A DNA stretch of 64,000 bases from an uncultured delta proteobacterium (GCA_963785235.1 CAWAUM010000003.1:64001-128000); one strand, 5' to 3'; shown: positions 41,213 to 47,521, counted from the stretch's first letter. The notes: generated by a model not told the origin, from the letters alone. A program made the numbers and translations.

Positions 41213-44155
41213 CTAAGGTATTGATACTGGTGGGCTAGGAAGTGTATCCTTAGTCTTATCAAGTTCAGACCTTACAGCCCGAGCAAGATCACTTAAGGCA
41301 TAGGGCTTACGAATATACGCACCCACACCCAGTTTAATGGCTTCCCTTACCCTGTCCGTCTCAGAGAAGCCACTGACGATGATGGCCTTCTGGTGACCCT
41401 GTACGGCAAGCATCTTCTTGTAGGTGTCCAAACCATCTATCCCGGTGTCCATAATCATGTCGAGAATAACAAGGTCTACTGCATTGAGTTTGATCAACTC
41501 CACGGCATCCTCACCGCTCATAACCGTATCCACATTGTAGCCGAGCTTTTTTAACAAACTTCTCGTTATTTCCCTTTGTTCCTCTGAATCATCCACCACA
41601 AGGATATGCTCCGTGCCTGAATAATCCTGGATCGACCCATTGTCAGCCTTCTCTTTGATAATGTGTCTGGTAACAGGGAAATAAAGGTCGAACCTTGTGC
41701 CCTCGCCTTCCTTGCTCTCCACATCGATGTAACCGTTGTGATCCTTGACCGTGGACCACACAACAGTCATTCCCAAGCCTGTACCGCTCCTGCCCATGAC
41801 CTTCTTTGAGAAGAATGGTTCAAAGATCTTTCTCAGGTCATCTTCTGAAATTCCAATACCGTTATCTGCAACCGACAGCACCGCATATTCTCCCTGGGAT
41901 ACCGTGTCATAGCCCTTGAGAGGCTTATCAAGATGCCTGTTGCCGGTGCTCACAGACACAGTTCCGCCCTTGTGCATAGCCTCGGCTGCATTCGAAACGA
42001 GGTTCATCAGGGTTTTGCCTAGGTGCACCTCTGAACCCAGTATATACTTGAGTTCATCATCAAGGCGTACATCAAAATTAACATGGGGGTGATACTCCTG
42101 GAGTTTCGAGAATTCAGGGCTTTCAAAATAGTCTCTCAATATTGCGTTGAGATCAACGACATTCGAGACATTGACCCCCCTGCGTGCAAGGGTGAGGAGG
42201 TCTTGAACCATTGCTGCAGCCTTGTCTCCGGACTTCTTGATGGTTTGTACCGCCTTCCTCATGGGGCTTTCCTCCGGGATTTCCATAAGGAGGAGTTCAG
42301 GATAGCTCGTGATACCACTTAAAATATTGTTCAGGTCATGGGCCACACCGCCGGCCAAGGATCCTATGGCCTCCATCTTCTGTGCCCTGATGAGCTGTTC
42401 CTCCAACTGTCTCTTCTCACGCTCGGCCTTTTTCCGGGCCGTGGTGTCATAGCCCACACAAAGGATCTCGGAGACATTGCCCTCTTTGTCGTAGATGGCC
42501 TTACTGCTCCAGTTTATCCATACTCGCTCTTTGCTTTTCAGGATATTCTCGCTCTCCATTGTATCATAACTTTCCGGGTTTGAGAGGAATACACTCATGG
42601 CAGAGGTCAAGTCCCTCCCGTTGAGATCTTTTTCCGGCACGATGAAGCCCAGGATGTTCCTGCCGAGCATCTCAGCTTCGTCATAGCCATAGAACTCCTT
42701 GGCATAACGGTTGACAAAGGTTACTTCACCCTTGGTATTGATCCTGAGGATGATACTGTTGGCACTCTCCACGAGCACACGGTATTTCTCCTCACTTGCC
42801 TGCATCATCTCAAAGGTGCGTGCATTATGAATGCTGATGGCGATCTGAGGGGCAATTCCCATGAGGAGATTGAGATCGCTCTGTTTGGGAGGGCCTATAG
42901 TCTTTGTATTATCGAGAGAGAGAACCCCCAGCGGCTCATCCTCATAGATAATCGGGACACAGATAAATGATCGGGCGCCTGATGTGCGGACAAGATCCTT
43001 GCTCCGCTGAGACAGGTTATCTATGATTTCATTCACATCATTCACAAGGAATGGCTTTTTCTGCCTGAAAGCCATGACGAATGGCCCCTTTGACCCGGGA
43101 TTGTCAAGATGAAGCTCAGTAGTTCTCAGTGATTCCAACTGCCCGGCCGTATACCCATATCCGGCTTTGATTTGAAGCCTTTTTCTTTCATGGTTCGCAA
43201 GGAGGATCATCCCCCTGTCATAGTCGAGGTGTTTCTTGAGGGTGACCATTGCAATATTTAAGAGCTCATCTATATCGAGTACGCTGGAGATTGCCTGGCC
43301 AAGCTCCTGTATCAGTTCTGCATCGCTGTATCTTCGGTTCGATTCAGCCATGAGCTGTTCCGCCATTTTGCCCTGATGCTCGATCTGCCGCCTGAGGTCC
43401 TGCTTCTCCTTAATCCCGATATAAGCTGAGAAGCCTAAAACCATCGAAAGCAATCCGAGACCGATGTCTGCTGTGTGAGTAGTGGATAGAAAAAATGAAC
43501 CGATGGCTGTGGATAGTATACTTAAGAGAAGAATGAGATTTCTCAATCGTTTAAGCTTGAGCGATAACGGCTCATTCCAGGAAATAAGATATTTACAGTA
43601 GTTTGCCCCTTTGTGAATGCATTCGTTATGCTCAACAATTGCATACTCTCCGGTAAAAGGCATGGCCAGGGCTTCCATTGATCCAAGACGGTTTTGGCAT
43701 TGATAGAGTTTTTCCTTTACCCCTGGATTCTGTTCGAAGACAGCCTCAACCTTGTTTGATGCAATTTTATTAATTGTGATCTTGGTTCCTCTTGTAAGCT
43801 TTGATCCGATCTTTCCCATGACTTCATAGGCTGTTGATGGTTCGATAAAACTGAAGATATACTGGCGGATTATGCCATAGGACGCAGATGTCGTGCCATA
43901 CCTGCCTGCATCACGTGCGATATTAGTATGATTGGTGAGTTTGTCTACAATCTCATGAAAACGGTCAGCCTGTTCCTGTGTATACCAATAACCGTCATCA
44001 TCTAACTGAGACTTCGTAATACCAGAGTAATCAAGGATATGGTCAATATTCAGTTCAGGATAATTCTTTCGGACATACTCCAGGTATGTCTTTATAATTT
44101 TTATATGATAGAGGTGCTTACCCTGTTGCCCAGCATCATTCATGCATCGATCCAT
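41213..44155 (-). CDS. Hybrid histidine kinase: V4R/H-NOX-like N-terminus, 2 TM, GAF, PAS, HisKA, HATPase, REC
   Basis: CQNRLG...[39 protein letters not shown]...LDMIMD. Confidence 0.88.
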
Positions 44156-44349
44156 TATTCCGTATTAAAAGAAGCCCCGATCGAGAAGGCTTCCTTCTCC
44201 ACAAAAACTTCAGGTTCGAATTTCGAAATTACATCAATCAAACCGTACTTTTATAATCGGCAATATGAAAAGGGAACATGACTTTATTCTGAATGCTTCA
44301 AGAGATCATGAATGCACGGTTTGCGGACATATTGACGGTTACTTAACTC

Positions 44350-46464: not shown

Positions 46465-46705
46465 ACAATTCCCCCTGTACATGTTCAAAATAAATCATCA
46501 ACTTTATCAAAAAGTAAAAGTGTTTCCTCTTAACTTGATACTATAAAACTAATAAAATATCTATGATTATCTCCACAAGTGAACATTCAAAAGAATAAAA
46601 AGAGACTAATTAATATAATGTATTCACGTTTTATTATATTTGAAATATCCATCTCAGTTATTTCTTACACAAGGGGATATTCCCCCTTAGCATTGTATAC
46701 TTTTT

Positions 46706-47521
46706 TTATTTTACCGGCTTCCTGCCTGTGCAGATTATAAGCGGCGTGTAGGTAAAACGCCTCGGATCGTGGAAGAAGTCATTAAAGTCTTTAAAAAAAC
46801 CTTCATAACCACCCGGATAGTCATCAAAGAGGGTTTTGGCCTTTACAGATGCCATCTCTACTTTCTTTATCCAATTAAAATCATCGCTTGACTGAAGATC
46901 TCCATAAATAAGGTGGTGGGGTATCAGGCTGACCTCGATATCTCGGAACCCGAGGTCATACAGGTACGTGTACATTTTCCTACCGACAAAGGCATCAAAA
47001 TTATATTTTGTCATCATTTTCTGCACTAATTTCTGAAGTATTGACTCCATCTCAGGCTTTATTGGGTAATGACTCAGGCAATTATAATCAAGGTCCAGGA
47101 GACACAGCCGGCCTAGTGGCTTCAGGCTTTCTGCAGCATTCCTGATAATATCAAGAGATCCCTCCAGGTAATACTCAAGTACAAAACGGATCCAGATAAA
47201 ATCAAAGGAACCCAGTTCGTCAAGGGGCTTCATAAGATCCATGCATCGAAACTCGATGCCGTCTTTGTTTCCGTAATGCTTATCTGCAAAATCAACCCTG
47301 TCCTGTGCGAAGTCTATACCTACTGCGGAACCGCCGGGCCGAACCATCTCATGAATAATGGAAGTTGTTTTTCCTGATCCGCAACCTGCATCAAGTACCC
47401 TTGCCCCGGGACCTATACCGCAAAGCTCGACCTGCCTTCGCACCGCATCGGGGTCTGTCTTGACGTCAAGCCTGAGGGCTTCCTCGGAATTCTCCATGAG
47501 ATATGCATCAGAACCGGACAT
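46706..47521 (-). CDS. Class I SAM-dependent methyltransferase
   Basis: EEALRL, VLDAGCGSG, AVGID, FDFIWIRFVLEY, LKPLGRL. Confidence 0.92.
   Translation of the reverse strand: MSGSDAYLMENSEEALRLDVKTDPDAVRRQVELCGIGPGARVLDAGCGSGKTTSIIHEMVRPGGSAVGIDFAQDRVDFADKHYGNKDGIEFRCMDLMKPLDELGSFDFIWIRFVLEYYLEGSLDIIRNAAESLKPLGRLCLLDLDYNCLSHYPIKPEMESILQKLVQKMMTKYNFDAFVGRKMYTYLYDLGFRDIEVSLIPHHLIYGDLQSSDDFNWIKKVEMASVKAKTLFDDYPGGYEGFFKDFNDFFHDPRRFTYTPLIICTGRKPVK

Follow-up and report, generated by a model that had tools for sequence, protein, structure and literature searches.

What joins a methyltransferase, a protein with two PilZ domains and a hybrid sensor kinase that are encoded side by side in an uncultured delta proteobacterium? 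The question is raised by a locus at positions 41213-47521 of a 64,000-nucleotide (nt) stretch of this organism's DNA (GCA_963785235.1 CAWAUM010000003.1:64001-128000), which was the sequence analysed and is referred to below as the window. The locus consists of three consecutive open reading frames (ORFs), all on the minus strand, whose co-directional arrangement had already been pointed out in a first-pass annotation of this DNA. We designate them MT, X and K:

46706..47521, minus strand: MT, a class I S-adenosylmethionine (SAM)-dependent methyltransferase of 271 amino acids (aa), recognised with Pfam
44350..46488, minus strand: X, a PilZ-PilZ-tandem GNAT protein of 712 aa when read as an ORF from TTG, recognised with Pfam and by its predicted fold
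41213..44155, minus strand: K, a membrane-anchored hybrid sensor histidine kinase of 980 aa, recognised with Pfam

Homologues of 704 aa and the N-terminal alignment suggest that the true start codon of X is the ATG at 46464, which would yield a protein of 704 aa.

The linkage of the three genes is conserved beyond local synteny and across diverse Desulfobacterota. Of the 36 other genomes in the family to which the window belongs, 30 yielded X, 28 the N-terminal sensor region of K and 27 MT; in the 24 genomes of a sister family, X and MT are each found in two and the sensor in none, and a GNAT module devoid of PilZ domains stands directly before MT in two genomes of that family. A scan of a genome collection, which overlaps with the family genomes counted separately so that the two sets of counts are not independent, yielded 80 loci with 81 X genes from Syntrophales, Desulfomonilia, Desulfobacteraceae, Desulfatiglandales, Syntrophorhabdaceae and others. 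When an MT or sensor gene within 4.5 kb of X is taken as its partner, the sensor is found beside 57 and MT beside 48 of these 81 X genes: 41 have both, 16 the sensor only, seven MT only, and 17 neither, 15 of the latter lying at contig edges. For the 35 X genes whose flanks are fully covered, the corresponding figures are 23 (both), seven (sensor only), three (MT only) and two (neither). The same families are neighbours in most relatives, an arrangement that is not due to chance, and their co-localisation holds through three different gene orders (MT>X>K>, X>K><MT and K>MT>X>). The other genes flanking the triad in the window (those for an AEC protein, an RF-1 domain protein, a lipoprotein and a HAD protein) served as a control and recur in only 9-10 of the 80 loci, which are essentially the same ones for each gene. 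Functional coupling of MT, X and K is therefore well supported, while the manner of the coupling is what we infer below; the three genes probably form one previously undescribed signalling module. Full-text searches, in which few subscription journals were covered, gave no description of the module or of the X family.

The methyltransferase is the most readily classified member of the trio. MT matches the Pfam families Methyltransf_25/11/31/23/12 with E-values between 6e-13 and 7e-11, and the match to Methyltransf_25 (6e-13) bears out the earlier assignment of this gene to the SAM methyltransferases; no NCBIfam model is reached at its cut-off. The nearest solved sequences are those of a phosphoethanolamine methyltransferase (5wp5; 9e-14), of 3mgg (5.5e-13) and of a juvenile hormone acid methyltransferase (9xyq; 4.8e-7), and by these matches MT belongs among the soluble class I SAM methyltransferases that act on small molecules. 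It is also the most conserved of the three proteins: in the closest full-length orthologous locus elsewhere (genome G008), MT is 87% identical, the N-terminus of K 65% and X 51%.

The relatives of X are annotated as 'hypothetical protein' in the source databases, and X has no NCBIfam match; a profile of its family found no match among Protein Data Bank (PDB) sequences at E<=10. Four parts can nevertheless be distinguished along the polypeptide chain of this soluble protein:

46045..46371, minus strand: conserved N-terminal domain, residues ~40-148, delimited by alignment
45751..46044, minus strand: PilZ domain 1 (divergent), residues ~149-246 (PilZ1 proper at ~154-232), from Pfam matches of homologues and motifs
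45403..45750, minus strand: PilZ domain 2, residues ~247-362, from the Pfam PilZ model
44353..45393, minus strand: tandem GNAT-fold module, residues 366-712, from an AlphaFold2 model, Foldseek and VIA-align

The N-terminal domain has invariant asparagines (N58, N61) and near-invariant F65, P89, C92 and G122 in the family alignment, and it has no Pfam match. Pairwise hhalign comparisons among this domain, the two PilZ domains and the two GNAT domains gave nothing significant (probabilities 0.2-15%). That X carries two PilZ-type motifs had been noticed before, and the family data substantiate it. PilZ2 (residues 275-354) exceeds the cut-off of the Pfam PilZ model PF07238 (26.7 vs 22.5 bits), and PilZ1 of the window protein matches the same model weakly (E 0.085, 13.6 bits); among 25 homologue slices that cover PilZ1, 19 match at E<=1 and five exceed the cut-off. 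The motifs by which PilZ domains bind cyclic di-GMP (c-di-GMP) are given as RxxxR and (D/N)xSxxG in a study of Myxococcus xanthus (PMC8316039). In 241 family sequences, the RxxxR motif of PilZ1 is conserved to 93% (R154) and 94% (R158), and its second motif is loose (D/E181-F-S/N183-x-x-G/A/S186); PilZ2 has the second motif in the form D283 (83%)-x-S/T285-x-x-G288 (98%), and its arginine motif, R254-N-P-R257, reads RxxR instead of RxxxR. With one of the two motifs kept in each domain and the other one deviant, the PilZ domains of X are likely candidates for c-di-GMP binding.

The C-terminal half of X lies outside every Pfam, NCBIfam and PDB sequence model searched, and its assignment comes from structure prediction. 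An AlphaFold2 model of residues 360-712 (pLDDT 88.0, pTM 0.87) has an alpha/beta architecture, for which Foldseek returned 257 matches at E<=0.001, among them VipF (6wqb; E 2.5e-10), the tandem GNAT 2wpw and N-myristoyltransferases. The top match in VIA-align is a histidine acetyltransferase (9emd_A; Z 12.9, rmsd 4.5 Å over 268 residues), and 63 chains score Z>=8, all of them GNATs among the matches listed. The best structural matches of the model are all GNAT enzymes, and the long matches are tandem GNATs; by this model, the C-terminal half of X has a tandem GNAT acyltransferase fold, laid out as GNAT1 (~366-530), GNAT2 (~531-690) and a long C-terminal helix. The first-pass annotation had seen a GNAT-like half here and had linked it to LuxI- and FeeM-type synthases: the fold stands, as a predicted tandem, and the link to those families in sequence does not. 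The single Pfam acetyltransferase match is to Acetyltransf_1, in one of 27 X family members (E 0.096). In a language-model comparison, an X homologue reached a similarity of 0.82 to clusters with PilZ and FeeM, under the bar of 0.9, and otherwise fell in with its own clusters only.

Most invariant residues lie in GNAT1 (F385, Y387, Y391, Y409, Y421, H430, Y437, G457, P488, F492, S511, D513). GNAT enzymes bind the pyrophosphate of acyl-CoA through a Q/RxxGxG/A loop that leads from strand 4 to helix 3, and GNAT1 has a conserved loop, P450-x-G452-x-K-R-x-G457, between a predicted strand (440-448) and a predicted helix (457-473). The family is large: a profile of the GNAT module collects 1559 clusters at 50% identity (E<=0.001), mostly of ~680-710 aa. 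Rare members of ~1200 aa, P0217 and P0254, have NERD and Ser/Thr protein kinase domains fused ahead of the tandem GNAT module. In P0254 only, Pfam also detects a PilZ domain, which lies between the kinase and the GNAT parts.

The third protein of the locus, K, is a modular kinase:

43556..44155, minus strand: H-NOX/V4R-like sensor domain, residues 1-200, from a predicted model and superposition
43412..43537, minus strand: membrane hairpin of two hydrophobic segments, residues 207-248, from a Kyte-Doolittle scan
42830..43276, minus strand: GAF domain, residues 294-442 (Pfam GAF, E 6e-17)
42440..42790, minus strand: PAS domain, residues 456-572 (Pfam PAS/PAS_9, E 2e-10)
41669..42361, minus strand: HisKA (599-659) and HATPase_c (708-829) domains (Pfam, E 6.5e-10 and 2.4e-22)
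41273..41605, minus strand: receiver domain, residues 851-961 (Pfam Response_reg, E 8.5e-23)

The N-terminus of K had been read as V4R/H-NOX-like, and the predicted model of residues 1-200 (pLDDT 87.0) agrees. In structural superposition, it matches the H-NOX protein 4u99_A with Z 16.0 (rmsd 2.9 Å over 174 residues; Foldseek TM 0.72), the N-terminal domain of VirS (8rcx_B) with Z 12.5, DmpR (6iy8_A) with Z 9.7, PoxR (5fru_A) with Z 9.6 and the V4R protein MJ1460 (2oso_A) with Z 9.2. At E<=10, the Pfam V4R model PF02830 is weakly matched by 20 of 22 sensor family members (best 3.3e-5; 13.4 bits for the window's K, with a cut-off of 31) and Arabinose_bd by nine of the 22; HNOB is matched by none of them. 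The hallmarks of H-NOX proteins are a proximal heme histidine on helix F and a YxSxR motif that contacts the heme propionates. The sensor family alignment shows no conserved histidine in residues 106-120, the helix that bears the H-NOX heme ligand, and the YxSxR position reads Y151-x-C153-x-N155-R156. Because the heme-helix histidine is not conserved, YxSxR is replaced and HNOB is not matched, sensing of heme or nitric oxide (NO) by K is unlikely. The invariant residues of the family are C153, H176, C179, H181 and C187, and the sensor domain of K, as modelled, is probably a non-heme, zinc-stabilised, ligand-binding member of the H-NOX/V4R superfamily.

The two hydrophobic segments of K (207-225 and 230-248 in the Kyte-Doolittle scan) are separated by a loop of ~4 residues that leaves no room for a periplasmic domain, and K has no signal peptide. 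For these reasons, the sensor domain, GAF, PAS and kinase parts are all predicted to be cytoplasmic, with the hairpin serving as a membrane anchor. Across the output classes described next, five of six sensors have two such segments and the sixth has one. With its sensor domain in the cytoplasm, a point that the first-pass annotation did not raise, K is less likely to be a quorum-sensing receptor of the classical extracellular kind.

The sensor module, comprising the H-NOX/V4R-like domain, the hairpin, GAF and usually PAS, is attached to more than one kind of output; GAF was found in 10 of 10 scanned sensors of other output classes. Among the 57 sensors beside X, 32 are histidine kinases with a receiver (some additionally with Hpt) and two are histidine kinases only or cut, so that kinase outputs total 34 of 57, in two of which no receiver was scored; 13 have an HD-GYP output, three an adenylate/guanylate cyclase output, and seven are cut or unclassified. 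The first-pass annotation had raised the recurrence of the same sensor on other outputs as a point to be checked, and such sensors, with HD-GYP and cyclase outputs, do stand beside X. Since the outputs vary while the neighbours X and MT remain constant, we assign X and MT to the sensor's input side.

On these grounds we suggest, with a probability of roughly 35%, that MT and X make an acylated and methylated hydrophobic small molecule under the control of c-di-GMP, and that the pocket of K binds it. In the envisioned pathway, X would move an acyl group from acyl-CoA or from an acyl carrier protein (ACP) onto an amine acceptor, GNAT1 probably being the donor-binding domain, and c-di-GMP bound to the PilZ domains would gate this acyl transfer. 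MT would methylate the same molecule that X acylates, and the product may be a small hydrophobic compound, for instance of the N-acyl amino acid methyl ester type. The pocket of the H-NOX/V4R-like domain of K, positioned at the inner face of the membrane, would bind this product or a precursor, and K would then set a phosphorelay here, and the levels of c-di-GMP or of cyclic nucleoside monophosphates (cNMPs) in relatives; HD-GYP outputs would thereby complete a feedback circuit that returns to X. An acyl and methyl chemistry directed at small molecules is suggested by operons of the type ACP-MT-X-KASIII-FabK-like, found in three loci, by the pairs of PilZ-less GNAT modules with MT, and by the type of methyltransferase that MT represents. 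The solved relatives of the sensor fold (H-NOX, DmpR/PoxR, VirS) bind heme, aromatics or drugs.

Several observations weigh against this proposal and have to be set beside the two alternatives that they partly favour. The loci come from genomes that are related to one another and thus do not count as independent; the three ACP operon loci in particular are close kin (84-90% identity) from a single lineage and count as one instance, and a search for the sensor in these three genomes, whose completeness is unknown, found no match. The coupling is not obligatory: eight sensor paralogues are accompanied by neither X nor MT, and X is likewise found without the sensor. GNAT substrates cannot be read from sequence, and the Pfam models for LuxI (Autoind_synth), FeeM and Acetyltransf_5 are matched by none of 27 X family members. 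Finally, X and K often lie very close together: of 49 co-directional pairs, 21 overlap or are separated by <=10 nt (ORF starts having been set mechanically), which hints at a protein complex and not at a diffusible link. This spacing is what one would expect if c-di-GMP-loaded X bound the sensor/GAF part of K directly, or if X and MT acylated or methylated K as a form of adaptation, with no diffusible product at all. PilZ proteins are often adaptors, X-K pairs without MT account for 16 of the 81 X genes, and a constant neighbour of variable outputs would fit such direct contact equally well. Solved H-NOX proteins, moreover, commonly exert their effect by binding to a partner kinase or cyclase (PMC8846402). 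Yet MT-X also occurs within the ACP/KASIII/FabK-like operon in genomes where no sensor was found, PilZ-less GNAT modules pair with MT in the absence of a sensor, and MT resembles small-molecule and not protein methyltransferases; we therefore regard direct coupling as rather unlikely.

The HD-GYP outputs fit equally well with X being a c-di-GMP effector that acts downstream of K. In such an arrangement, K would sense an unrelated cytoplasmic or membrane cue and change c-di-GMP, through HD-GYP directly or, in the window, by way of a phosphorelay that reaches a c-di-GMP enzyme; X would read the level with its PilZ domains and switch an acyl/methyltransferase pathway, whose product (a modification of lipid, envelope or protein) is not sensed by K. 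In addition to the 13 of 57 adjacent sensors with HD-GYP, a REC-HD-GYP gene after one triad fits this picture, as does a GGDEF diguanylate cyclase gene situated two genes downstream of a second X gene of the window's genome (G000:C3:246649-248730; L035:7617-9725, minus strand), which encodes a protein 48% identical to X and has neither MT nor the sensor nearby. A precedent is PixB of M. xanthus, in which two PilZ domains connect c-di-GMP to a GNAT and for which an acetyltransferase activity on a substrate that may be a protein has been proposed (PMC8316039). Against this stands the fact that the adjacent sensors are mostly kinases (34 of 57), with three cyclases in addition, neither of which makes or breaks c-di-GMP, and that no response regulator or c-di-GMP enzyme gene adjoins the triad of the window; we consider such a downstream role of X unlikely. 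A mere inheritance of synteny among functionally unrelated genes might be entertained in view of the fact that, within the family to which the window belongs, synteny extends over the entire block (nitrilase-like, ABC, USP, lipoprotein, RF-1 domain, MT, X, K, AEC, HAD), and that each gene family occurs somewhere without the others. This explanation is disfavoured and, in our view, most improbable, given that the linkage persists through three rearranged gene orders and changed flanks, with the sensor beside 57 and MT beside 48 of 81 X genes and the flank genes in only ~10 of 80 loci.

Our preferred reading, the synthesis of an acylated and methylated small molecule by MT and X and its perception by K, can also be phrased in a far more specific form: a new kind of autoinducer-like circuit of anaerobic Desulfobacterota, in which a c-di-GMP-gated tandem-GNAT N-acyltransferase and MT would make an N-acyl amine or amino acid methyl ester lipid signal, and a heme-less, zinc-bearing H-NOX/V4R receptor at the inner membrane would be wired to a phosphorelay, to c-di-GMP hydrolysis or to cNMP synthesis. 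Phrased in this way, the idea is quite unlikely. If true, it would supply candidate genes for the biosynthesis of the methyl esters of N-acyl amino acids, for which no synthase is known according to PMC11580390. The quorum-sensing-like circuit envisioned in the first-pass annotation is, taken as a whole, partly supported by our analysis. Two findings that it named as refuting, a lack of conserved co-localisation and a kinase N-terminus unlike V4R/H-NOX, were looked for and did not emerge. The c-di-GMP side of the system, represented by two PilZ domains and the HD-GYP outputs, carries more weight than that annotation had allowed.

Members of the X and sensor families were also encountered in other genomic surroundings. 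Two ORFs upstream of the X paralogue of the window's genome, across a divergently oriented small ORF, lies a gene for an AMP-binding enzyme. Extra X-K pairs without MT occur in two genomes (L031:3140-5510 and the matching genes of L037), where they are followed by two HGD-D family genes that are 2-hydroxyacyl-CoA dehydratase/benzoyl-CoA reductase-like. Beside an X gene, and divergent from it, lies a gene (L096:573-3782, minus strand) for a protein of 1069 aa that combines a PilZ domain at the N-terminus with methyltransferase domains at the C-terminus, and in three loci of the Desulfobacteraceae type (L062, L064, L072) a gene for a MerR-family regulator precedes an X that has neither MT nor sensor. 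In three of the eight loci with stand-alone sensor paralogues, a DUF3795 gene is found close downstream, in L121 as the immediate neighbour, in L120 and L123 separated by at least one small ORF.

The regulatory sequences around the triad of the window offer few landmarks. A simple terminator scan found no clear terminator between MT, X and K, a promoter scan performed no better than on shuffled sequence (13 vs 13.6), and an Rfam scan of 39000-50000 found no riboswitch, the only matches being sub-threshold hairpins. One of these follows the triad:

41045..41139, minus strand: long hairpin between the stop codon of K and the next gene, with sub-threshold matches to microRNA-precursor models only

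This hairpin is possibly the end of the transcription unit; it was not among the results of the simple terminator scan. A second long hairpin (49569-49674), again matched by microRNA-precursor models only and well below threshold, lies directly after a USP-like gene (49085-49543) and overlaps the 5' end of a mechanically called ORF (49571-50044). In the metatranscriptome X20, short contigs, mostly <95% alike, cover parts of all three genes; these contigs come from relatives, carry-over of DNA is possible and no single transcript is shown, and they were accordingly not used for expression; the habitat labels attached to runs of low share were likewise left aside. The AEC transporter encoded near the triad was considered as an exporter of the product and found unsupported, as it recurs only together with the unrelated flank genes, in 10 of 80 loci.

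Further away in the window, translations revealed a second large hybrid kinase of 1120 aa, located 5 kb upstream of the triad (52236-55598, minus strand), with several PAS-like repeats and an N-terminus of the multi-pass membrane type. A sequence resembling the NrfA cytochrome c nitrite reductase (31926-33527, minus strand) is, as judged from translations, split over overlapping ORFs in different frames and adjoined by a small NrfH-like ORF, and a frameshift or an assembly error is possible. An isoleucyl-tRNA-synthetase-like sequence (56050-57978, minus strand) likewise extends across several overlapping frames; the GC content of this stretch is 0.585 vs ~0.47 nearby, and frameshifts or a chimeric join are possible.

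What emerges is a widespread, undescribed module that is built from known domain types, with the tandem GNAT module of X present in a family as large as 1559 clusters. If the reading that we favour is true, it links c-di-GMP to an acyl and methyl small-molecule chemistry, and it would define a class of non-heme H-NOX/V4R receptors in syntrophs and sulfate reducers, bacteria about whose cell-cell signalling little is known. Should one of the rival readings hold, X would still be a defined c-di-GMP effector with an enzymatic output, and the loci provide a clean example of a single sensor module combined with three alternative outputs.

How does this module compare with systems that are already known? 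The PhcB methyltransferase of Ralstonia reportedly makes a methyl-ester signal, for which PhcS is said to be the sensor kinase. Like MT and K, this is a SAM methyltransferase gene beside a sensor kinase gene, and the likeness is one of analogy only; unlike PhcB/PhcS, the present module adds a tandem GNAT with a proposed gating by PilZ domains, and its sensor domain is predicted to be cytoplasmic. The tandem-GNAT enzymes (9emd, VipF 6wqb, the clavulanate-pathway protein 2wpw and N-myristoyltransferase) share the two-GNAT fold of the X model, at identities of 6-14% and with no common sequence family, and their substrates are unrelated.

The closest characterised architecture is that of M. xanthus PixB (MXAN_2604), which has the same order of PilZ, PilZ and GNAT as X, a comparison made by architecture and not by sequence. 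According to PMC8316039, binding of c-di-GMP by PixB was seen in vitro, and function depends on the acetyltransferase domain, whose substrate is unknown. X differs from PixB by an additional conserved domain at its N-terminus and by a GNAT part that is tandem and escapes the Pfam acetyltransferase models, and it is linked to MT and to an H-NOX/V4R-like sensor.

With regard to K, the closest functional parallel is offered by H-NOX systems (Shewanella HnoX/HnoK/HnoB, Legionella Hnox1/Lpg1057), which control kinases and c-di-GMP enzymes according to PMC8846402, much as kinase and c-di-GMP outputs are found around K. The N-terminus of K has, by its model, the full H-NOX fold; unlike in the H-NOX systems, it is anchored in the membrane and forms one polypeptide with the kinase instead of a separate protein, and the heme features are absent. 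The V4R-type aromatic sensors DmpR, PoxR and MopR are related to K through fold matches of Z 9.6-9.7 (DmpR, PoxR) and the weak Pfam V4R matches. The zinc ligands of DmpR include C151, C177 and C185 (PMC7264223), and C153, C179 and C187 of K have exactly the same C-x25-C-x7-C spacing, a putative zinc site that K has in common with the DmpR-type V4R domains. The fourth zinc ligand is E172 in DmpR, and H176, E178 or H181 are candidates for this position in K; unlike the DmpR-type proteins, K has an output that is not a sigma-54 activator.

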